Assembly: GCA_965223795.1 (NCBI GenBank)
Contig: CBDCXL010000002.1
Span: 2,304,001 to 2,368,000 of the forward strand
Direction of reading: 5' to 3'
DNA: 64,000 nucleotides
Source: Nitrospinales bacterium
Lineage (GTDB): Bacteria > Nitrospinota > Nitrospinia > Nitrospinales > VA-1
The translations under genes were made by a program, and so were the position numbers. Shown one piece after another: positions 52,085-63,880 of the stretch. Within the stretch, counting starts at the first letter, position 1. Each line of letters starts with the position of its first letter. The notes beneath the pieces are model-generated. The model was not told the origin of the DNA and ran no database searches. It worked only from the letters and a program-made list of their open reading frames with translations.

Positions 52085-52160
<76 letters not shown>

Positions 52161-52680: not shown

Positions 52681-53013
52681 TGACCTGCCCCTGTTATTTG
52701 TACCAGTTTCTAAGTTAGAGTTTCGACTTTTTGGGGGAGATAGGTTTCCGGAGCTGGAGGCCGGTATCCCAAGGCACTATGAGGTCGAAACCGGTTATAT
52801 TCCACCCGTCATCGCTCGATGAGCACTTGCGCCTCCCGAAGCGTGGTGAAGACTTCTCCATTTAACAGCTCATCTCGGAGCTTTCCATTGAACGATTCAT
52901 TGTAGCCATTCTCCCAGGGGCTGCCTGGTTCGATAAATAAGGTCTGCACTCCCAATCCTTCCAGCCAGGATCGAACTGCTTTTGCAGTGAACTCCGGTCC
53001 ATTGTCCGAACGG
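52681..53013 (-). mobile_element. IS3-family remnant (3' part of transposase and right inverted repeat)
   Basis: [45 protein letters not shown]; element end TGACCTGCCCC at 52681. Confidence 0.85.
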
Positions 53014-53620
53014 TTTGAGTGCGAAAGGGAAACTTTTTAATAAAATAATCGACAAAGTCGATTGCGTTTTCCTGCTTTAGTCTTTCGTATATTTTTAAAG
53101 CTCGAACTCGAGCGGCATCATCAACAGCGGTATATTAGAAATGTGTGATCTTTGTGCAATAAGATTAAGGGAAGATGAGGAATTTTACATCTACTTGGAT
53201 GTGATGGCCTGGGACCTGTTTCTCATAACGAACCGTCTGGATTGTGCGCCTTTTGGCATTTTGGGGCAATCGATTGAATCCGTGCCGTTTCAAAGTACGA
53301 TAAACGCCACTTCCAGAAACAGTGATGTCATGGTAACGCTTTAAATACCAAGTAATCCGATCAGGCCCCAAGTGATAGGTTTTTCTGATATGAAGGATCT
53401 TTTCCTCGACTTCAACTGGCATTCGGAGAGTAGGGTTTTCAGGTCAGGGTTTTTTATTAATCAATCCTTCTTCGCCAAATAATTCATAAGCATTTCTCCA
53501 CAGATAAAAAACAGCCCGTAAAATCCCAAAGTAACGGCAGGTTTTTCTGATATTCCCAATCTTCTTGGCATGATTTAGAACCCTAAGCTTCCTTTGAATA
53601 TCTCGCTTGGCTTTGCTCAT
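53003..53620 (-). pseudogene. IS481-family transposase remnant (5' part, several stops and frameshifts)
   Basis: KTCRYFGI...YLW, GPDRI.WYL.RYH, RYEKQVPGHHIQVDVKF, YTAVDDA.R.R, FPF...VRT. Confidence 0.85.
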
Positions 53621-53690
53621 CCCCATCTCCCCGCTAAATAGTTTCAAATTAACAAAACTGTCTACCGAGGTCGAACATTTCATTGTGATA

Positions 53691-55433
53691 CTAGATTTTT
53701 CTTCTATAAACTCCGTAAACTTCCTGCAATGCGCGGGTCCATTCATCGAGGGTCACCTGCTTGACGATCTTTAGCGTGGTTTCAAAAACATTGCCGCCGC
53801 TTTCTGCTACGCGCTTGAGTAAATCGATTTTTTCTTTGACTTCTTTCTGATTTCGATTCTTCTTGAATCGCTTCACATCATCCCGGCGTTTTTGCTTTAA
53901 TTCCCGGGATATTTCGACCCTTGGAATATCCGTATTGTCTTCTCTTCCTTCCATATAACGGTTGACGGCGATGATGGGCCGTTCCCCGGTGCGAACCTGG
54001 TGCTCATACAGTGCCGACGAATTTGCGATCTCATCGCGAAAAAAACCGATGTTTTTTGCTTGCAGGGTGCCTCCGAATTCCTCGATCTGACAAAAGTAAT
54101 CCAGAATTTTATTGATTACCAGAGTATAAATCTGACTCCTTCCCGAACCGTCGCTTAAAAAAGCCATCATGTCCTTCAATCCTCCCATCTCTTCCAGCAG
54201 GATCGCCTGGGCGTCGGAAGCGATGCGCACCGCTCCTTCTGTGGGTGTTGTGACCGGTTCGTCGTAGGAATTGCTGTGCAGTGCCTGCGGATAATTGAGC
54301 AGTGCATAAAACAACTCCAGTGCGGTTCTGGTGATGTTGTTCTGGATTTCCCTTTCGTAGAGACTCCTTCCTGAAGACTGGATGTGCGCTTTCAATTTTT
54401 GTGCGCCGGGGTCGTCCGCTCCATACACATCCCGCATGGCTACCGACCAAACCCTTCTCACCGCACTTAATAGAGCGATGTATTCAATATCGAGCCCGGA
54501 AGTGAAAAAAAAGGGCAGGCGCTTCCCGATGGTGTTGATTTCCATTCCTCTTTGCAGGGCCTGCTCCACATAGACAAACCCGTTGGCCAGAGTGAATGCG
54601 GCCTGCTGTATGGGGGTCGCTCCTTTCTGCTCGATATGGTAGCCGCTGACATTGATGGGGTAATACAAGGGGGCATTGGCTGCACACCATTCGAACATAT
54701 CCATCGCAAGCTCAATGGACTTTTCCAGGGGAAAAAGAAGCTCGTTTTGTGCGTCGTCTTCCTTGCAAGGGTCGGTTTGAGATGTCCCGCGCACCCTTTT
54801 TAAATTCTGTCCCTTCTCATTCGCGGCCTGAAGCCGGGCCGCGGTCATCCAAAGCGAGGGACCGTTGATCGTCATCGAAATGCTGACATCGTCTTCAAAA
54901 AAACCATCATACAATTCCAGCATATCCTGGTAAGTGGTCACGGAAACCCCGCCTTCACCCACATCCAGGAAATAGTCCGGATCGTCCGCTCCTCTTCCGA
55001 GAAGCGTATTTGTGTCGAATGCGGTGCTCAGCCGTCGGGAGGACTGCCGCTGGACTATGTATTTGAAGCGCTCGTTCGTCATTTCTGGAGAACCCAGACC
55101 GGCGAATATACGGGTGGGCTCTTCGTGCTCCCTTTTTCCATCGATGATCAGGTAGGCCGTCGGGTAGATGGACAGGCCGTAAGGAAATTCGCCCGGAAAC
55201 CCCCATTCTCCCTGGTAGCGCGCGATTTGCGAGGGATGGTCGATCCTGGGAACGGCGATGGAAGGGATGTGAAGGCCTGTCGGCAACGGATGGGACTGCA
55301 ATCTCTTCAGTTTTTCCTTCCATTGTGATTGCAGCTCTTGTTGATAAGCCGGATCGCGTTTTGCCTTTTCAACGGAGTCTTCCACCGATTGGCGGTACTG
55401 TTCGTTCGCGCGAACGATATCAGTGAGGGACAT
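53691..55433 (-). CDS. B12-dependent acyl-CoA mutase, substrate-binding subunit (C-terminal part of an IcmF-like enzyme)
   Basis: PGEFPY, PTRIFAG, RLSTAFD, SMTINGP, KEDDAQN, SGYHI, QSSGRSL, LHSNSYDE, YRR. Confidence 0.9.
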   Translation of the reverse strand: MSLTDIVRANEQYRQSVEDSVEKAKRDPAYQQELQSQWKEKLKRLQSHPLPTGLHIPSIAVPRIDHPSQIARYQGEWGFPGEFPYGLSIYPTAYLIIDGKREHEEPTRIFAGLGSPEMTNERFKYIVQRQSSRRLSTAFDTNTLLGRGADDPDYFLDVGEGGVSVTTYQDMLELYDGFFEDDVSISMTINGPSLWMTAARLQAANEKGQNLKRVRGTSQTDPCKEDDAQNELLFPLEKSIELAMDMFEWCAANAPLYYPINVSGYHIEQKGATPIQQAAFTLANGFVYVEQALQRGMEINTIGKRLPFFFTSGLDIEYIALLSAVRRVWSVAMRDVYGADDPGAQKLKAHIQSSGRSLYEREIQNNITRTALELFYALLNYPQALHSNSYDEPVTTPTEGAVRIASDAQAILLEEMGGLKDMMAFLSDGSGRSQIYTLVINKILDYFCQIEEFGGTLQAKNIGFFRDEIANSSALYEHQVRTGERPIIAVNRYMEGREDNTDIPRVEISRELKQKRRDDVKRFKKNRNQKEVKEKIDLLKRVAESGGNVFETTLKIVKQVTLDEWTRALQEVYGVYRRKI

Positions 55434-56685
55434 GTTCGGGCTCCATCAGGACCTGATACAACGCATCGACACCGGCATTTCTGTGTTCGATTGCGGTCGT
55501 GAGAAACAATCGGTCGCGGTTCACTTTTTTTCTCAGCAAACCGCTCACATGACGTGAACCCCAAAGCTCACTTTTATTCAACACAACGATAACCCCAGGC
55601 AGGTTCAACATTTCTTCCTTCTCGATTTGTAGAGCGCCGCCGATGTCCGGGGTGGCGACAAACACCGCCTGATCCACAAGGTCCACAATCCCGCTGTCCG
55701 GCTGCCCGATGCCGTAAGTCTCCACGATCACGTCGAAACCCGCGGCTTTGAGGATCTTGAGAACGTCGGGAAGTGCACGTGCGATCCCGTTTCCGTAGCC
55801 GCGGGAAGCCATGCTTCTAACGAAGACCCTGCTTGTGTCCACCCAGTTCTTATCGGTGGCATACATGTAAGCGATTCGATCGGCCAGCAAAGCACCGCCT
55901 GTGCTTCCTGAACTGGGATCGATCGCGACCAGAGCCAGCTTTCTTTTTTCTGTGCGCGGATCCTTGAAATACCGCAGTACCAGCTCATCGGTTAAAGTGC
56001 TTTTTCCCGATCCCCCTCGTCCAGCAATACCGATCACCGGGTGAGGGTTTCTCGAAGGCTGTAACCTGTCAAGGCAATCCTGGAAATAACGGCACCGTTC
56101 CAGAATTTCCTTTCTTTGCAAGCCGGACGAAGACAGATCGGTTTTTTCATTGCTATCACCCTCCTTCAGCAAGGACTCCAACCGGCTTTTTTCCTCCACG
56201 AGGTTGATCCAGCCGGAAACAGCCAAAGCATCTCCCTCCCGGACCGGATCCAGGAGATCCAGAGGATTCTCCGGAACCATGGAATAATCGTAATTTTCCT
56301 GAACGAAGGAAACGATTTCCTGGGATTCATCGCTGCGGAAAATTTTATCGATTCCCGATACTTTTTCCAGGACGGCAATGTCCTTTGGAGTGATCGTCGC
56401 TCCTCCTCCTCCTATCAAATGCACACTGGGATAATTTCGCTGTTTTAGTTTGTCCACGACCGCCTTGAAAAAGGGCACGTGGCCGCCGTTGTAGGAACTG
56501 ATTCCGGCGAAATGGATTCCTTCCTGGATGATGCCATCGACAAATTTATCAACCGTCAAGTCATATCCACCCAGGATGACTTCCACGCCTCCTTTTTTCA
56601 GGATGTCCGCAACGATCAAAATGGGCGCGTCATGTCCATCATTGCTCTTGACACCGATGAAACCTCGGATCTTGTTCTTTGGCAT
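55420..56685 (-). CDS. Cobalamin-binding domain fused to a MeaB/ArgK-type G-protein (N-terminal part of an IcmF-like enzyme)
   Basis: DGHDA, SSYNGGH, GGG; P-loop GRGGSGKST, DPS..TGGALLADRI, ETYGIGQ, NKSE. Confidence 0.9.
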   Translation of the reverse strand: MPKNKIRGFIGVKSNDGHDAPILIVADILKKGGVEVILGGYDLTVDKFVDGIIQEGIHFAGISSYNGGHVPFFKAVVDKLKQRNYPSVHLIGGGGATITPKDIAVLEKVSGIDKIFRSDESQEIVSFVQENYDYSMVPENPLDLLDPVREGDALAVSGWINLVEEKSRLESLLKEGDSNEKTDLSSSGLQRKEILERCRYFQDCLDRLQPSRNPHPVIGIAGRGGSGKSTLTDELVLRYFKDPRTEKRKLALVAIDPSSGSTGGALLADRIAYMYATDKNWVDTSRVFVRSMASRGYGNGIARALPDVLKILKAAGFDVIVETYGIGQPDSGIVDLVDQAVFVATPDIGGALQIEKEEMLNLPGVIVVLNKSELWGSRHVSGLLRKKVNRDRLFLTTAIEHRNAGVDALYQVLMEPEHVPH

Positions 56686-56748
56686 AGGGTAAGTTTTGTT
56701 GCGAACCTGGTGCGAGTGAGTGAATCACACACTCGACTTCAGCCTGCT

Positions 56749-57948
56749 TCAACGCTTGTCCAAAGAGACGTAGGTCCTCATGTCCTCGGCCCGGATTCCG
56801 TTGTACTGCTGTGCAGGCCGGAAAAGAGGACCACGGTTTTTTCTTTGCCTTGCGTTGTTGGCGACCCAGCCGAAATGGCGGGTGGACTGAAATATCGGTG
56901 TGTTGAGTATTTTGGGAATGCCGATCACCTTGTACAACAGACTGATCGGCAAGTCGGCATTGGGGGTTCGATCCTTTTCATTCAGCATGATTTCGCTGAT
57001 GATGTCGTAAATTTCGAAATACCGGCTCATCCCTCTTTTTTCAGCTAACGGCCTGGCAATGGACTCTGCAATTTTCACACGGGATTCCACTTTATTTTTA
57101 TAGTGCTTCAATCGATGGCCGAAACCGGCAATGACTTCCTTTTGCTTCAGTTTGTTGAAGATGTAATCCCTGGCTCTTTGCGGAGTCTCAATTTCGTCGA
57201 AAAGATCCGCCACCCTTTCGTTGGCTCCGCCATGCAGCACTCCTTTCAGGGAGACGGCGCCTGCAAGGAGAGGTGAATAGGGATCGGTGCCCGCAGACTC
57301 CGCCACCAAAGAAGTGAACGTGGAACAGTTGAGAGTGTGATCCAGATAAAGTATCAGTGTGACGTTCAGAGCATGGGCGATTTCCTCTTCCGGTTCGATT
57401 CCGATCATGTGAAGAAAATTGGCGGCGTAGTTCAGGGAAGGATCCGGAGGGATGATGGATTTTCCATGAATCATCCTGTATCCATTCGCGACGATGACCG
57501 GAATTTTCGCTCCCATACGGACTCCCGATTGCACGATCAGATCCGCCACACGGTCCGCTTCTTCCTTGGGTTTTTGCCATAAAGGATTGTGGTAATCCCG
57601 ATCAAACATGCGGGCAAACGAAAGTGTGGTCAAAAGATAATCCATCATTTGAACGTCCGAAGGATAGGTCCGCATGTGAGTAAGGATTCTTTCATCCAGT
57701 GTTTCGTGCGCCTTGAGTTGGGTGGTGAATTCACTGAGCTGACGTTTATCGGGCAACGCATCCTGCAAGAGGAGATACACGCTTTCTTCGAATAAACCTT
57801 TCACCAGGTCGAAAATGCTGTATCCCTTATAAAGAAGAAGGGGATCCCCGTCAGCGCCCAAAGTGGTTAAAGAAATATCAGAGGAACAGACGGGAACGCC
57901 GTCCAATCCGGTGTCTACTGTGTTAATGACTTCGCTGGTCTGGCTCAT
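56749..57948 (-). CDS. prpC: 2-methylcitrate synthase (citrate synthase family)
   Basis: GLDGV, DHTLNCSTF, LHGGANE, GFGHR, PNAD. Operon with prpB and prpD; specificity inferred from context. Confidence 0.8.
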   Translation of the reverse strand: MSQTSEVINTVDTGLDGVPVCSSDISLTTLGADGDPLLLYKGYSIFDLVKGLFEESVYLLLQDALPDKRQLSEFTTQLKAHETLDERILTHMRTYPSDVQMMDYLLTTLSFARMFDRDYHNPLWQKPKEEADRVADLIVQSGVRMGAKIPVIVANGYRMIHGKSIIPPDPSLNYAANFLHMIGIEPEEEIAHALNVTLILYLDHTLNCSTFTSLVAESAGTDPYSPLLAGAVSLKGVLHGGANERVADLFDEIETPQRARDYIFNKLKQKEVIAGFGHRLKHYKNKVESRVKIAESIARPLAEKRGMSRYFEIYDIISEIMLNEKDRTPNADLPISLLYKVIGIPKILNTPIFQSTRHFGWVANNARQRKNRGPLFRPAQQYNGIRAEDMRTYVSLDKR

Positions 57949-58780
57949 AGTTGAGAAATTTCTGGATGGCTTTCCGGTCCATCATCTTGTGCACGCAGTG
58001 TTCCTGGCTGCCATCCTGTTTCAGTTTTGAAAGCAGGGTTCCTGTTTGCCCTGCCAGATACCTGAATAAGGAAACCGGAAAAATAACGATATTGAAACCG
58101 AATTTCCAGAACTCACTGGCTTTGATGAAAGGCGTGTTGCCAAATTCGGTCATATTGGCGAGCAGGTAGCCCGGCACTTCTTTGCCGTAGCGTTCGAATT
58201 CCTCCCTGCTTTGCAGCGCCTCGGGAAAAATCACATCCGCCCCTGCTTCTCGATAGAGGTTTCCGCGATAAATCGCTTCCTGCAGTTGATCGTCGCCATT
58301 CACGTTGTAGGCGCCTCGCGCATCGGTTCTCGCGATCACCATGAACTCCGGATCGAATTTTTCCCGGGCGGCACACGCCCGTTTTATCTTGGCGATCATT
58401 GCCTCTCTGGAAACGATTTCCTTACCAGCAAGGTGGCCGCAGCGTTTCGGAAATGTCTGGTCTTCAATGTGCAAAGCGGCAAATCCTGCTTGTATGTATT
58501 TTTCGATGGTCTCCTCCATGTTCTGGAAACCCGTATCCGCATCGCAGATAACCGGGATGTCCACCGCCTTTACGATCCATCGTCCCAGGTAAACAAAATC
58601 CTCCAGTCCCAAGGTTCCGTCATCGGGAACGGCCATGCTGCCGGAAAGCCCCGCTCCGGAAATATAGACTCCCGGAAATCCCGCCTCCTCGACCTGTCTG
58701 GCCACGAAGGGATTGAAGACGCCGGGAAAAACCAATCCCGGTTCATTTTCCAGCAATTGCCTGAGACGGTTGCCGGCCAT
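57923..58780 (-). CDS. prpB: 2-methylisocitrate lyase
   Basis: DADTGF, HIEDQ..PKRCGH, ARTDA, LANMTEFG.TP. Confidence 0.9.
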   Translation of the reverse strand: MAGNRLRQLLENEPGLVFPGVFNPFVARQVEEAGFPGVYISGAGLSGSMAVPDDGTLGLEDFVYLGRWIVKAVDIPVICDADTGFQNMEETIEKYIQAGFAALHIEDQTFPKRCGHLAGKEIVSREAMIAKIKRACAAREKFDPEFMVIARTDARGAYNVNGDDQLQEAIYRGNLYREAGADVIFPEALQSREEFERYGKEVPGYLLANMTEFGNTPFIKASEFWKFGFNIVIFPVSLFRYLAGQTGTLLSKLKQDGSQEHCVHKMMDRKAIQKFLNYEPDQRSH

Positions 58781-58781
58781 G

Positions 58782-60158
58782 TCATGTCACCTTGAAGATT
58801 TGCATCATGGCACCGAGATCCGAAACACGTTCGAGGTTCCACACATCATCGATCACTCGATCCTGCCTGGATTTTGCCAATAATCCCGCACAGGCAGACC
58901 GGAATTTATCCTCAATCTCTTCCCGGCTCAGAGGATTGTTGGGATGTCCTTTTGGATCCAGGATCTCCTTTTCAAAGACCTTCCCATCCCGCATCGTGAT
59001 AAAAACCTTATTGGGAAACGATCTTCCATAAATATGGGTGTATTTCTTGTTTTCCGCAACCGTCACCCTTTGAACGAGGTCCAAGAGTTCAGGGTTTTGC
59101 AGATGCTCTGCGTCGAACTGTCCGAGTGTGATCTCTCCATCCATCAACGCCGCCACCACGATGTAGGGAAGGCTATGGTCCGCGGTTTCCTTGGTTTTCG
59201 GGGTCCATTTGGCGGGCTCTTTGCCGATGATTTCGTAAGAATGAAAACTCGTCTCCACATGGATTTTCTCGATAGATTTTAAGTTTTCCGGCCCGATCCG
59301 ATCGCGCAGGTCCAGTGCCGCCCAGATGGCGCTTTGCGAGTGGTACTCGGCAGGGAAGTATTTGATGTAGGTCTCCACGATCTTGAATGGAGTGGTTCCC
59401 TGTCCGCCAAATTCTGCGGCAAGATCGAATTCACCCTGTGTGATCTGATGGATCAAACCATGTTTGCCGGCGATGATTTCGCTGGGCCCGTCAAAACCGT
59501 GCTTCACATAAAGAGCCGCTCGAATGGCATTCTGACAGGCCTGGGCGTAGGCCGCAGCCTTCCATTGGGAGATCGTTCCGATACGGGTTTGTCTCAGATA
59601 ATTCCCTGTGGTGACTGCGATGGCCAGGCAATCCCGGATCTGCTCCCTGGAAAAACCCATGAGTTTTGCGGCCGCCGCGCTGCTGGCGATAGAACCGTAG
59701 GTCACATGGTCCCATCCCTTTTTTCTGATGGCGGCAGCATCGCACAGCCGGCAATGCAATTCGTAGGTGAGCACCGTGGCGAGAATGAGGTCTTTGCCGT
59801 TTTTATCTTCCGCCTCGGCAACGCAAAGACAGGCGGGCAGGTTGTCGCTGGGGTGAGCGGGTTCCCGATTGAGGTAGGTGTCGTTCCAGTCGAGGGCGCG
59901 AATCAGGGTTCCCAGATACACCGCAGCGTAGTCGATCGGAGCTTTGTGCTTGGTGCCTAAAACCGTGGCGCCGTAGGCGGCGGTCGCCTGCGTGGCAAAA
60001 TTTCTCATGGCGGCTGCGGGAGGAGAGTTGTAAGCCGCCAGGGAAGTGGCAAAGCTGTCCAGGTAGCGTTCTTTAACGGCCTGGATCGCTTCGTCGGTCA
60101 GTTTTTCATAGCTCAGGGTGGCGACATACTCGCTGATCTGTTGTTCGAATTTATCCAT
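58782..60158 (-). CDS. prpD: 2-methylcitrate dehydratase (MmgE/PrpD)
   Basis: RALDWNDTY, HPSDN, WDH, KYFPAEYH, ETADHS, GHP. ATG at 60158 after GAGGAG. Confidence 0.9.
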   Translation of the reverse strand: MDKFEQQISEYVATLSYEKLTDEAIQAVKERYLDSFATSLAAYNSPPAAAMRNFATQATAAYGATVLGTKHKAPIDYAAVYLGTLIRALDWNDTYLNREPAHPSDNLPACLCVAEAEDKNGKDLILATVLTYELHCRLCDAAAIRKKGWDHVTYGSIASSAAAAKLMGFSREQIRDCLAIAVTTGNYLRQTRIGTISQWKAAAYAQACQNAIRAALYVKHGFDGPSEIIAGKHGLIHQITQGEFDLAAEFGGQGTTPFKIVETYIKYFPAEYHSQSAIWAALDLRDRIGPENLKSIEKIHVETSFHSYEIIGKEPAKWTPKTKETADHSLPYIVVAALMDGEITLGQFDAEHLQNPELLDLVQRVTVAENKKYTHIYGRSFPNKVFITMRDGKVFEKEILDPKGHPNNPLSREEIEDKFRSACAGLLAKSRQDRVIDDVWNLERVSDLGAMMQIFKVT

Positions 60159-60476
60159 GGAATGCTCCTCAAAGCATCTCTTATTATTATAAATCCAATG
60201 AATTACAAGGAGGGCAGTTATTTTCACCCGGCAAAGGAAATCCACCGCGGACGAAACCAAATGAAAACGACAAGCCCTCCATGAGTTCGCGTTCCTTTGA
60301 AAAATCATAAATTATGGAATGTCTTTAAAAAAAGCGAGATCGAAAGCGAGTGTTCCGGGTCTGCCTGGATTTATAATAAAATGGGTGTGCGAAGTTGTTG
60401 TTGCAACCGTTGAGTTGGGCAAATACGGGCATTATTTTGACATCCTTTTTGCCTCTTCCTTTCAGGAGGTGGTTTC

Positions 60477-62429
60477 ATGGCACTCGATTACCGGGTCTTC
60501 AAATCCTCCGAGCCGTCCGCCGACAGCGATAAACGACAAAATTATTTCGATTTCAATCCTCATCTTGCCTATTTGATTCGAAGAGCGAGCACGGGAGATC
60601 CTGAACTCGTGCAGGATATTCTGAAAATGATCGGAGAGTTGAGCGCTCAGCATCTCGCGCCCAGGGCAGACGCAAACGACAAGGCAGGATGCCGCCTGAA
60701 ATGGCACGTCGGAGATGTCGCTTTATCGCAATCTGAATTTAAAAAATTCAATGAACTGAAAGGAACAGCGGAATACCGCCCTGAGGAACCTGCCAGCGCC
60801 GTGGACAAGGCGCTGCAGGCCGCGAGTGCCGATCCCGAAATCCCGATCTATTCGGATGTCGTTTTGCCGCCCGGGGCTGTAGAGCAAATGAATCTGCTGC
60901 GAGAGCACGATCTGATCGGGATTGCCCTGCCTGAAACTTATGGTGGTACTTCTCTGTCACACATGGTCAACGGAGCCGCCCTGCTTTTTTATTCTCAGGC
61001 GGACGCCGCCTTGCTGCTGCGGGTCATGCTGACAGAAGGCGTCGCGGAGCTCATAGAGCATTTTGCCGACGACGCGTTGAAAGATAAATACCTGCCGTTG
61101 CTCTGCTCTGGCGATCCCGGGAATCATCACATCGGAGCGATGCTGATCACGGAACCCGATGCGGGATCGGATTTGCGGGGGATTGCGGTGAAAGCGGTTA
61201 AAAAAGACGGCCGTTATTTCATTGGCGGCCGAAAAATATTCATCACCAATCCCGATGCGGATGTTTCGATCGTCCTGGCCCGCATGGACGGGGCCGCGCA
61301 CGCGTCCCTGGAAGGGTTGAGTCTATTTCTGGTTCCCAAATTCATTGTGGACGAAACAGAAAACCGAAAAAGAAATCGAATCCTCATCGAAAACCTGGAG
61401 GAAAAGCTAGGCATTCACGCCTCGCCCACGGGCTCCGTCTTTTTTAAGGGGGCGCACGCGCATCTGATCGGAAGGGAAGGCGAGGGGCTCAAGCAGATGT
61501 TGTATCTGATGAACAAATCCAGATTGGGAATCGGCATTCAAGGGCTCGGGATCGCGGAACGCGCCTTCCTGGAGTCGGCGGTGTTCTGCACGGAAAGAAA
61601 GCAGTTCGGAAAGATCCTTGCGGAACTTCCCTTGATGCAGGAAATCCTCGCAAGCATGCGGATTGAAATCGAAGGTGCCACCAGTTTTATCTTCAAGGCT
61701 TACGACTGCATCGATCGATATTTCGCCTTGAACAATGACAATCAAGAAACAGATTCCATCACACCAGAGAATGGAGAACTCCGGTATTACCAAAAGTTGA
61801 TTCGAATATTGACGCCCCTGGCGAAATATCACGGATCCCGGCTCGGTGTTTCGATGGCGGACCGGGCCGTGAGCAATTTTGGCGGCTACGGCTATATCAA
61901 CGAATTTAAGGTGGAGCGCCTGATCCGGGATGCCAAAATCGCAACCATTTACGAGGGAACCAACAACATGATGGTTCTGGATGTTCAACGGTCCATCGTC
62001 AAAGAGGGGACTCTGGAGGTCCTGATCGAGGATATGCAAGCCAATCTGAAAAACGTGAAGGAGGATCTTTTACTGCCTTCTAAAGAACTCACGAATCGAT
62101 GTGTTTCTCAATTGCACGCTGTCCGCAAAACCATCATGCGATCCCCGGAATCTGACATTGCCGCGCAAGTGGAAGCGCGTAAATTCGCGGAATTTTTGAT
62201 CCACGTTTATCAGGCAGGCCTGATGCTCGAAGAAGCGCAGCATCAAATGGACAGTGAGGGAGACTTGCGAAAAGCGGTGATGGCCATAAAATTCAGCAAC
62301 GACACCTTGTTGCCGCCGGGCGAGCGCATCACCGCAAAGAACCTGTCGGTAAAGTTTTTCAATTCGATTTTCTATCACCAGAAATTGAGCTATACGGACT
62401 ATCAATCCGCCGTTGCTTGCAAGGCGTAA
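60477..62429 (+). CDS. Acyl-CoA dehydrogenase (long form)
   Basis: TEPDAGSD, GRKIFIT, KLGIHASPT, R.QFGK, GGYGY, IYEGT. AGGAGG RBS. Confidence 0.92.
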   Translation: MALDYRVFKSSEPSADSDKRQNYFDFNPHLAYLIRRASTGDPELVQDILKMIGELSAQHLAPRADANDKAGCRLKWHVGDVALSQSEFKKFNELKGTAEYRPEEPASAVDKALQAASADPEIPIYSDVVLPPGAVEQMNLLREHDLIGIALPETYGGTSLSHMVNGAALLFYSQADAALLLRVMLTEGVAELIEHFADDALKDKYLPLLCSGDPGNHHIGAMLITEPDAGSDLRGIAVKAVKKDGRYFIGGRKIFITNPDADVSIVLARMDGAAHASLEGLSLFLVPKFIVDETENRKRNRILIENLEEKLGIHASPTGSVFFKGAHAHLIGREGEGLKQMLYLMNKSRLGIGIQGLGIAERAFLESAVFCTERKQFGKILAELPLMQEILASMRIEIEGATSFIFKAYDCIDRYFALNNDNQETDSITPENGELRYYQKLIRILTPLAKYHGSRLGVSMADRAVSNFGGYGYINEFKVERLIRDAKIATIYEGTNNMMVLDVQRSIVKEGTLEVLIEDMQANLKNVKEDLLLPSKELTNRCVSQLHAVRKTIMRSPESDIAAQVEARKFAEFLIHVYQAGLMLEEAQHQMDSEGDLRKAVMAIKFSNDTLLPPGERITAKNLSVKFFNSIFYHQKLSYTDYQSAVACKA

Positions 62430-62695
62430 TAAAAGCTTTCAACTTCTAGCTGTTGTTATATTTGAACGAAAGTGAATAAACTCAGAGCTCATCGTTCCGC
62501 TCTGAAATAGAGAGGTCGAACCAGGTCGTGTTTGCACTTAAAACGCTTCTAATCCCGCCCCTAAACCAAATGGTTGACCTCACGGCAATGCGATTGATAA
62601 GTATGGGGTTATAGCGATATTCGGGTATTGCCAAATCGGCTGGAAAGTGTATATTGGAAAGAGGGAGGGGAATGGATTCGCACCGGGAGTTTTCC

Positions 62696-63880
62696 ATGCA
62701 TCCGTTCGAAAGGGTCTCCTACATCTACAGCGCAGTCCGCACACCCATTGGTAAATTCAACGGGTCTCTCGCCTCCGTTCCCGCAGTGAACCTGGCTGCG
62801 ATCGCCATCCAAGAAGCGGTTCAACAAAGTCACGTTCCCATAACCCGTATCAGTGAGGTCATCATGGGCAACGTCCTTTCCGCCGGACTGGGTCAGAATC
62901 CCGCACGACAAGCTTCCATCAAAAGCGGCTTACCCGTTTCCGTGGGAGCGACCACCGTGAACAAGGTCTGCGGCTCCGGATTGAAGGCCGTCATGCTGGC
63001 GGACAATTCAGTGCGTTTGAACGAAGCCGATTTTGTGGTGGCAGGAGGCATGGAAAGCATGAGCCAGGCGCCCTTTTTAATCCAAAAAGTCCGCCAGGGT
63101 CTCAAGCTTGGAAACCACGAACTCATTGACAGCATGATGCACGATGGGCTGTGCGACAGTTTCAGCAAACTAAACATGGGGGAAATCGCCGATAAGCTGG
63201 CCCGGAAAGAATCCTACACACGGGAACAGCAGGACGACTTCGCCAGAAATAGTTTTCACCGCGCAAGAGAGACGCAGGATCGATGTCTTTTTTCAAAGGA
63301 AATCGTCGCCGTTCCGGTCCAGCACCGGGGTAAAGAAACACAGATCGTCAAGGACGAAGCGCCTTATTCCTACGACCTGGAAAAACTCTCCACCTTGCCG
63401 CCGGCTTTTGACAGGGAAAGAGGAACCGTGACCGCAGGCAACGCATCGAGCCTCAATGATGGGGCTGCGGCGCTGCTAGTGGGCGGCCACAGTGAGAACC
63501 TGCGGCCCCTGGCACGGATCTGCGGGCACGCGACGCATTCGCAGGCACCCGAGGAGTTTCCCGTCGCTCCTGCCGGCGCCATTAAAAAATTGATAAGTCG
63601 TTGGCAAGTTTCCCTGGAAGAGATCGATCTTTTCGAAATCAATGAAGCATTTGCGGTTTCCACGCTGGCCGTCTGCGACCGTCTCGGCCTGAATTTGAAT
63701 AAAGTGAATGTGCATGGAGGGTCTGTGGCTTTGGGGCATCCCATCGGCGCCTCGGGCGCTCGAATTCTTGTGACCCTCATTCACGCTTTGAAAGCAAGGA
63801 AATTGTCCAAAGGCATCGCCAGTCTCTGTCTGGGGGGTGGAGAAGCGGTCGCCCTCGGACTGGAAATGATCGACGATTGA
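62696..63880 (+). CDS. Acetyl-CoA C-acyltransferase (thiolase)
   Basis: RTPIG, NKVCGSG, GGMESMS, NEAF, GHPIGASG, CLGGG. Confidence 0.95.
   Translation: MHPFERVSYIYSAVRTPIGKFNGSLASVPAVNLAAIAIQEAVQQSHVPITRISEVIMGNVLSAGLGQNPARQASIKSGLPVSVGATTVNKVCGSGLKAVMLADNSVRLNEADFVVAGGMESMSQAPFLIQKVRQGLKLGNHELIDSMMHDGLCDSFSKLNMGEIADKLARKESYTREQQDDFARNSFHRARETQDRCLFSKEIVAVPVQHRGKETQIVKDEAPYSYDLEKLSTLPPAFDRERGTVTAGNASSLNDGAAALLVGGHSENLRPLARICGHATHSQAPEEFPVAPAGAIKKLISRWQVSLEEIDLFEINEAFAVSTLAVCDRLGLNLNKVNVHGGSVALGHPIGASGARILVTLIHALKARKLSKGIASLCLGGGEAVALGLEMIDD

Follow-up and report, generated by a model that had tools for sequence, protein, structure and literature searches.

Isobutyryl-CoA mutase (ICM) of Streptomyces consists of the subunits IcmA and IcmB, with the barrel and the cobalamin domain on different chains and a separate MeaB-like G-protein, whereas IcmF carries a cobalamin domain, a G-domain, a linker and a barrel in one polypeptide. 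In methylmalonyl-CoA mutase (MCM), it is the cobalamin domain that is served by a G-protein chaperone, according to the part of PMC10481361 available to us. Here, two adjacent genes were analyzed in a 64,000-nucleotide (nt) stretch of the genome of a Nitrospinales bacterium (GCA_965223795.1, contig CBDCXL010000002.1, positions 2,304,001–2,368,000; this whole stretch is called the window below). The first open reading frame (ORF A) combines a cobalamin-binding domain with a G-protein, and the second (ORF B) combines a linker with a substrate barrel. To judge from the sequences, the pair is almost certainly a real two-subunit mutase of the IcmF type.

The gene pair and the conservation of the split

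ORF A (55420–56685, minus strand; 421 amino acids (aa), beta subunit) contains a cobalamin-binding Rossmann domain (residues ~1–135), a helical connector and a MeaB/MeaI-type G-domain (~200–415), and its C-terminus follows directly after the last helix of the G-domain. ORF B (53691–55433, minus strand; 580 aa, alpha subunit) contains an N-terminal helical hairpin (residues 3–43) that is a remnant of the linker, the substrate-binding TIM barrel and C-terminal helices. The domains of both ORFs were assigned using Pfam, an IcmF profile and structural matches. The Pfam search found PF02310 (B12-binding; residues 12–117, E = 3.1e-15) and PF03308 (MeaB; residues 203–373, E = 1.4e-34) in ORF A, and PF01642 (MM_CoA_mutase; residues 76–574, E = 1.8e-104) in ORF B, which is the sole PF01642 barrel of the genome. 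The NCBIfam IcmF model NF045497 (fused isobutyryl-CoA mutase/GTPase; 1076 positions, curated cut-off of 1500 bits) was matched by ORF A over profile positions 11–365 with 248.8 bits and by ORF B over positions 512–1075 with 432.6 bits, i.e., by two ORFs that both score far below the value set for a single fused polypeptide. The best solved relative of ORF A and of ORF B is the IcmF of Cupriavidus metallidurans (CmIcmF).

The two frames overlap by 14 nt (55433–55420, minus strand; ATGTCCCTCACTGA). The stop codon TGA of ORF A lies at 55422–55420 and the start codon ATG of ORF B at 55433–55431, in the +1 frame relative to ORF A. A GGAG sequence at 55444–55441 (minus strand), 7 nt before this ATG, is a possible Shine–Dalgarno site. 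The initial annotation had described these two ORFs, their overlap and the ribosome-binding motif of the second one, and all of this was found in place. The GGAG motif is not kept in the relatives, whose junctions differ.

To evaluate the distribution of the genes within the order, 41 Nitrospinales genomes (the source genome and 40 relatives) were compared. Eleven genomes gave a match to ORF A, one of which was a MeaB-like G-protein only, so ORF A is carried by 10 of the 41. A PF01642 barrel was found in the same 10 genomes and in none of the other 31; a relative from the same genus (94% complete) contains neither ORF A nor ORF B. In all nine relatives that have the genes, A and B are adjacent separate ORFs with 59–67% identity to those of the window. 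Their junctions, the lengths of which rest on a heuristic choice of the start codon, were +1 nt (five relatives), +4 nt (two) and −11 nt (two), compared with −14 nt in the window. The closest proteins belong to Nitrospina gracilis, N. watsonii, Nitromaritima and metagenome-assembled genomes of Nitrospinaceae. Split relatives reach 70% identity, and a length-blind search showed that all matches with at least 47% identity are 233–453 aa long. No close fused relative was found in the collections searched, where the best longer match scored 228 bits with at most 39% identity over its full length. Thus, the possibility raised in the initial annotation that all close homologues might be fused did not hold, and the same split that it had proposed to look for in other genomes was found.

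Metagenomic data were also used to inspect the junction. The region 53691–56800 was spanned by contigs from two samples of one study; no indels were found, and one of the contigs had eight substitutions. These contigs are not independent evidence, since the assembly may itself derive from one or more of these runs. Two other metagenome runs contained short pieces of the region only.

A wider census was carried out by scanning one genome per species with an alignment of the short forms as the query, and 80 loci were returned. A split into adjacent ORFs with the same protein boundary was found in 44 loci (5 from Nitrospinota, 38 from Verrucomicrobiota and 1 labelled Nitrospirota), while 30 loci were fused, with a length of 1078–1219 aa where complete, and came from Bacillota, Rhodothermota, Actinomycetota, Bacteroidota and others. 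Two more loci (L019 from Ignavibacteria, and L024) were split with a gap of at least 400 nt; of the remaining four, two ran off the contig, one contained only ORF A at a contig end and one was fragmented. The ratio of split to fused loci in this census is not a frequency, because the loci were chosen by their likeness to split forms. Among the 39 split loci outside Nitrospinota with a start that could be picked, the two ORFs overlapped by 4 nt in 14 loci and by 26 nt in 1, and the other 24 had an intervening gap of +2 to +166 nt. Despite these differing junctions, ORF B in split loci always starts with MS[KL]..[IV][IV]..[NV]E.Y and ORF A always ends after the last helix of the G-domain. The split is therefore a genuine, conserved two-gene form; it is not rare, being the usual arrangement throughout a large clade, and many members of Nitrospinota and Verrucomicrobiota have it.

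Two further layouts were observed in these searches. The Ignavibacteria locus L019 (3944–8783), like L020, contains a 479-aa ORF with the B12 and G-domains, a DUF4397 gene and a 682-aa barrel ORF; its barrel falls inside the fused clade beside a Flavobacteriales IcmF, so that the genes here were divided independently and in a different way. Long frames with parts of the mutase were also found (L104, G044:C1:709403–713908; G095:C55; P0030; P0073). In one long frame of 1053 aa, the C-terminal half is an MCM-type barrel and the N-terminal half has no assignment; another of 1559 aa is built around a fused IcmF, and the G-domain is matched by two representatives with lengths of 1918 and 4508 aa.

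The position of the cut was examined using AlphaFold 2 models. The model of ORF A (pLDDT 88.6) superposes with residues 1–421 on CmIcmF 22–421 (379 residues aligned, Z 43, root-mean-square deviation (rmsd) 2.2), and the model of ORF B (pLDDT 84) superposes with residues 1–580 on CmIcmF 446–1093 (567 residues aligned, Z 41.9, rmsd 2.2). In the part of PMC10481361 available to us, docking of IcmF into cryo-electron microscopy maps used two rigid bodies, namely residues 22–442 (cobalamin and G-domains) and 443–1093 (linker and substrate domain). The cut between A and B coincides with the junction of these rigid bodies and therefore lies at a natural domain boundary and not at an unusual point, as the initial annotation had put it. 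Its statement that the linker is largely missing also needs correction. The N-terminal hairpin of ORF B (helices 3–26 and 28–43) was predicted with a pLDDT of 92–98. In the HMMER alignment, residue 52 of ORF B pairs with SEQRES residue 567 of CmIcmF (native residue 547), and the 51 preceding residues of ORF B correspond to ~101 linker residues of CmIcmF, ~50 of which have no counterpart. A further ~24 residues at the cut (CmIcmF 422–445) have no counterpart in A or B. According to these alignments and models, the linker is about half as long as that of CmIcmF.

Signature residues, barrel phylogeny and origin

Alignment with solved chains was used to determine the type of the mutase. At two signature positions, ORF B has Phe110 (55104–55106, minus strand) in TRIFAG, compared with TRMFAG in IcmF, MRQIAG in the two-subunit 2-hydroxyisobutyryl-CoA mutase HcmA/HcmB (HCM) and IRQYAG in MCM, and Gln229 (54747–54749, minus strand) in KEDDAQN, compared with KEDQGQN, KEYMAQK and KEFMVRN, respectively. 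The motif LSTAFD with Ala138 is identical to that of IcmF, whereas HCM has ISTDFD. Phe110, Gln229 and Ala138 are invariant in Nitrospinota (12/12), in the Verrucomicrobiota-type forms (37–38 of 38) and in fused forms (27/27), while four of the five MCM outgroup sequences have Tyr and Arg at the signature positions. We take the positions of Phe110 and Gln229, as we understand the IcmF and MCM literature, to separate carboxylated from non-carboxylated substrates; the equivalents in CmIcmF are presumably Phe598 and Gln742, a numbering consistent with the 20-residue tag offset. ORF B thus has the Phe/Gln signature of IcmF and lacks both the Tyr and Arg of MCM and the Ile and Asp of HCM.

ORF A includes both a cobalamin domain with the His motif and a MeaB-like G-domain. 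His18 in DGHD (56632–56634, minus strand) occupies the expected position of the lower axial cobalamin ligand and is invariant in the alignments. The conserved P-loop reads GRGGSGKST and the G4 motif NK[SN]E; in 47 Nitrospinota-type A proteins, Gln353 and Lys356 of switch III are conserved in 47/47 and 45/47, respectively. The G4 motif NKSE (residues 370–373; 55567–55578, minus strand) is an NKxE variant of NKxD; its last residue is Glu in 42, Asp in 4 and a gap in 1 of these 47 proteins, Glu in 24 and Asp in 22 of 46 sampled fused IcmFs, and Glu in 2 of 42 Verrucomicrobiota-type A proteins. The G-domain pairs with residues 4–269 of MeaB only and ORF A ends there; it is fused to a cobalamin domain and is not a stand-alone MeaB/MMAA protein with a C-terminal dimerisation extension. 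Likewise, the pair does not correspond to a stand-alone ICM, which has a lone cobalamin domain and an IcmA-clade barrel, since ORF A carries a G-domain and ORF B lies outside the IcmA-like clade. The replacement of the MCM residues by Phe and Gln and the NKxE variant known from some IcmFs, both pointed out in the initial annotation, were thus borne out by the alignments.

For the phylogeny of the barrel half, IQ-TREE was run three times as a quick search under LG+C20, with SH-aLRT as the sole measure of support. The first of these trees (run 1) included 82 sequences, with MCM outgroups from the genomes behind the scanned loci. It was revealed that 26 fused forms and L019 form a clade with a support of 100, the sister of which contains the 50 other split forms (support 89), namely 12 sequences from Nitrospinota (support 100, stem 2.97) and 38 of the Verrucomicrobiota type (support 99). 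In run 2, to which 15 diverse fused representatives were added, the support was 87 for the split clade and 83 for the fused clade. The fused clade had two short proteins as its basal branches, namely P0066 with 1000 aa and P0078 with 983 aa; since these are fused and yet about as long as A and B together, their linker is short. Run 3 (44 sequences) included eight stand-alone IcmA-like barrels of actinomycetes (IRQFAG/KEYIAQKE) and excluded the loci of genomes flagged as unpublished. The IcmA-like barrels (support 100) were placed as the sister group of the IcmF-type barrels as a whole (support 100, stem 2.0), which divided into a split clade and a fused clade (85 each). Fused and split barrels therefore belong to one IcmF-type clade apart from the IcmA-like and MCM barrels. 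Both halves of the pair appear to be of IcmF-type ancestry. The position of the split forms as the sister of the fused forms is moderately supported in these trees (85–89).

Concerning the origin of the two-gene form, two readings are evenly poised in our judgement. It may be an intermediate on the way from IcmA, IcmB and a MeaB-like protein to IcmF, in which the cobalamin domain and the G-protein were joined first and the barrel later, or it may result from an ancient fission of a short-linker IcmF. The sister position of the stand-alone IcmA-like barrels and the placement of the split clade beside and not within the fused clade agree with the former, as this topology would require one fusion instead of a fusion and a fission; by parsimony on run 3, it favours an IcmF-type ancestor with a separate barrel and the two-gene form as an intermediate. 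The basal position of the short fused forms of 983–1000 aa and the independent recent fission in Ignavibacteria agree with the latter. Moreover, a topology in which the split forms are nested among the fused ones, with only P0066 and P0078 branching outside, was not rejected (difference in log-likelihood 2.9, approximately unbiased (AU) test p = 0.152). The support for both clades is moderate, the trees come from quick searches and the fused sample is small and was picked by similarity to split forms. A recent fission of a canonical long-linker IcmF was rejected because the split clade was not nested among the crown fused forms in any of the three trees.

Genomic context and predicted role

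Directly upstream of ORF A, a prpC-like gene of the citrate synthase family is located (56749–57948, minus strand; best match 2-methylcitrate synthase/citrate synthase II), followed by genes for a prpB-like methylisocitrate lyase (57923–58780, minus strand; best match TIGR02317) and a prpD-like 2-methylcitrate dehydratase of the MmgE/PrpD family (58782–60308, minus strand; best family match). These proteins appear to be divergent methylcitrate-cycle enzymes. The genes prpD-prpB-prpC-A-B lie on the same strand and are separated by overlaps or a 63-nt gap, and a citrate-synthase-like gene is located upstream of A and B in all nine Nitrospinales relatives. Genes for an acyl-CoA dehydrogenase (60477–62429, plus strand; 650 aa) and a thiolase of the acetyl-CoA C-acyltransferase family (62654–63880, plus strand; above the TIGR01930 cut-off) are divergent from this cluster. 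Beyond the right end of the window (L116, 3941–14179, G000:C2), a 1287-aa IOR-like 2-oxoacid:ferredoxin oxidoreductase (DUF6537 and POR) is encoded, followed on the opposite strand by an unassigned 294-aa ORF, an ECH_2 hydratase, an acyl-CoA dehydrogenase, a 3-hydroxyacyl-CoA dehydrogenase, an unassigned 197-aa ORF and a thiolase-like protein. We regard this neighbourhood as a probable branched-chain acyl-CoA cluster. A scan for promoters and terminators over 53000–60700 gave counts not above those in shuffled sequences.

On the other side of the operon, the stop codon of ORF B is immediately followed by broken transposase-like helix-turn-helix ORFs (PF13518, PF13592; 53165–53746, minus strand). 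Runs X1 and X4 contain another contig, 211 nt long, that diverges exactly at 53691, which indicates that the population or the assembly graph contains more than one version of the sequence downstream of the operon, possibly one that has an insertion element and one that lacks it. A gene for tRNA-Lys (CTT; 52085–52160, plus strand) is located ~1.5 kb past the end of the operon, beside insertion sequence remnants. These elements, and the fact that the operon occurs patchily (10/41 genomes), hint at an accessory and possibly mobile region.

Taken as a whole, the best explanation, which we consider highly probable, is that A and B are the two subunits of an adenosylcobalamin-dependent IcmF-type acyl-CoA mutase. 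The beta subunit (ORF A) would hold the cobalamin-binding domain still joined to its own G-protein chaperone, and the alpha subunit (ORF B) would provide the shortened linker and the substrate barrel. By analogy, the cobalamin domain of beta may cap the alpha barrel in trans, like the small subunit in ICM and HCM, and the attached G-domain may, as in IcmF, spend GTP on gating how the cofactor is loaded and removed. Given their tight junction, A and B could be co-translated from a single prpD-prpB-prpC-A-B transcript, a proposal taken from gene spacing only. The predicted reaction converts isobutyryl-CoA into n-butyryl-CoA and back, or does so with a close non-carboxylated short branched acyl-CoA; isobutyryl-/n-butyryl-CoA is the main substrate that we would name, by slight preference. 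Valine-derived isobutyryl-CoA could enter beta-oxidation via the mutase, and propionyl-CoA could enter the methylcitrate cycle.

Several observations weigh against this explanation. The activity, cobalamin binding and expression of A and B are putative. The barrel stem of Nitrospinota is very long (2.0–3.0 changes per site). At 23 positions where the fused and Verrucomicrobiota forms agree, Nitrospinota have residues of their own, compared with 7 in the reciprocal control, and 11 of the 23 changed positions are also conserved in MCM. They include E269Q and A270K, which give YHIEQKGA in place of the otherwise universal YH[IM]xEAGA, and the change to DPCKE where DI[LF]KE is found elsewhere. The long stem and the clade-specific replacements indicate that specificity or chemistry may differ from that of characterised IcmF. 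Furthermore, the prp-like proteins all score below the NCBIfam equivalog cut-offs (prpC 289.5/421.3 bits, prpB 295.8/354.4, prpD 228.4/950), and no prp genes were found in the seven Verrucomicrobiota-type loci examined. The context is therefore not transferable across the clade, since the Verrucomicrobiota relatives have different neighbours. As a separate observation, a divergent short-chain dehydrogenase (adh_short_C2, ~250 aa) was found in four of these seven loci (L028, L064, L088 and L055).

These features could alternatively mean that, in Nitrospinota, the two-subunit mutase is of the IcmF type but now uses another substrate or has a changed chemistry. Candidates are 2-methylbutyryl-/valeryl-CoA, isovaleryl-/pivalyl-CoA or another acyl-CoA tied to the methylcitrate/branched-chain cluster. 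The very long stem, the excess of clade-specific and MCM-conserved replacements and the linkage to prpC in nine of nine relatives, which the Verrucomicrobiota relatives lack, are consistent with such a change, but Phe110, Gln229 and Ala138 are the residues of IcmF and ICM, and we consider a change of substrate or chemistry unlikely. A bolder version, rather less probable still, is that of a neofunctionalised B12-dependent acyl-CoA mutase of the prp/branched-chain cluster, with a new substrate or an altered radical chemistry, the two-gene layout of which would be a surviving intermediate of IcmF assembly; the long branch, the E269Q/A270K change in the YHxxEAG motif and the change from DILKE to DPCKE are what would point to it.

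It is very improbable that the enzyme is a methylmalonyl-CoA mutase. Orthologues do bear that name in public annotations (in Nitrospina gracilis, 'Methylmalonyl-CoA mutase, large subunit'), and the family name of PF01642 suggests it, but the Tyr and Arg of MCM are replaced by Phe110 and Gln229, ORF B falls among the IcmF barrels in the tree that has MCM as the outgroup, and the operon appears to offer a methylcitrate route for propionyl-CoA instead, as judged from gene context and from the part of PMC8026999 available to us. Finally, it is hardly credible that an ordinary fused icmF was broken by a frameshift that arose in sequencing or assembly, or by a mutation that recently turned it into a pseudogene: the 14-nt overlap in different frames is what a 1-nt indel would give, but the two-ORF layout recurs with differing junctions in the nine relatives and in 44 of the 80 census loci, the start of ORF B is conserved across two phyla, the contigs from two samples show no indel, and ~75 residues between the G-domain and the barrel of fused IcmF have no counterpart here. 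The view of the initial annotation that the split is not a simple frameshift was therefore upheld. A programmed frameshift fusing A and B was also rejected: no slippery run was seen in the 14-nt overlap, and the relatives have stop codons and intergenic gaps of up to +166 nt.

Significance and comparison with known systems

The two-gene IcmF-type mutase is a natural variant that so far appears under generic annotation names only. The public names of its orthologues are 'methylmalonyl-CoA mutase', 'cobalamin-dependent protein' and 'hypothetical protein', and a literal reading of them would lead to a wrong methylmalonyl route for propionate in Nitrospina. No paper on a split IcmF was found in the literature searched, although an earlier mention in primary IcmF papers cannot be excluded; PMC2847961 and PMC7764203 contain no split form. 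The prpBCD genes or the methylcitrate cycle are discussed in genome papers on Nitrospinae, including PMC8026999, in the parts of these sources available to us, and the available main text of PMC8026999 and of another Nitrospinae genome paper nowhere uses the word 'mutase'. Nitrite oxidisers of the Nitrospinae are described as B12 auxotrophs in the same part of PMC8026999, and A and B would represent one of the B12-dependent enzymes in this group.

In every form seen, the G-protein is joined to the cobalamin domain, while a covalent link to the barrel can be dispensed with, which points to the pair of chaperone and cobalamin domain as the essential unit. The locus offers a natural two-piece system for studies of cofactor loading and gating without engineering, and the two-gene form may be an intermediate between ICM with MeaB and IcmF.

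A comparison with known systems was made for both gene context and domain layout. The mmgABCDE-yqiQ cluster of Bacillus subtilis resembles the locus in context only, as it brings together a thiolase, an acyl-CoA dehydrogenase, a hydroxyacyl-CoA dehydrogenase and three methylcitrate-cycle genes; to our knowledge, this operon includes no B12 mutase. HcmA/HcmB (PDB 4R3U) shares the two-subunit layout and Gln at the position of Gln229, but has Ile at the position of Phe110 and Asp at that of Ala138. MCM with MeaB/MMAA shares the folds of the barrel (Z 39–41) and of the cobalamin domain (Z ~18); it differs in the Tyr/Arg signature, in the cobalamin domain being C-terminal to the barrel and in the chaperone being a free dimer, and the residues of MeaB after ~269 have no counterpart in ORF A.

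Stand-alone ICM, represented here by the actinomycete IcmA-like barrels, is similar in the distribution of the barrel and the cobalamin domain over different chains and in the Phe and Gln signature. However, the small subunit of the pair described here covalently carries the G-protein, and the barrel falls in the IcmF-type clade (support 100). CmIcmF (PDB 4XC6/5CJT) differs in being one polypeptide instead of two, in its identity to A and B of only 36–37% and in a barrel insert of ~25 residues with no equivalent in ORF B. The order of modules is nevertheless the same in CmIcmF and in the pair (cobalamin domain, G-domain, linker, barrel), as are the Phe/Gln/Ala signature and the Gln and Lys of switch III; the barrels belong to one clade, and both halves superpose on the solved structure.

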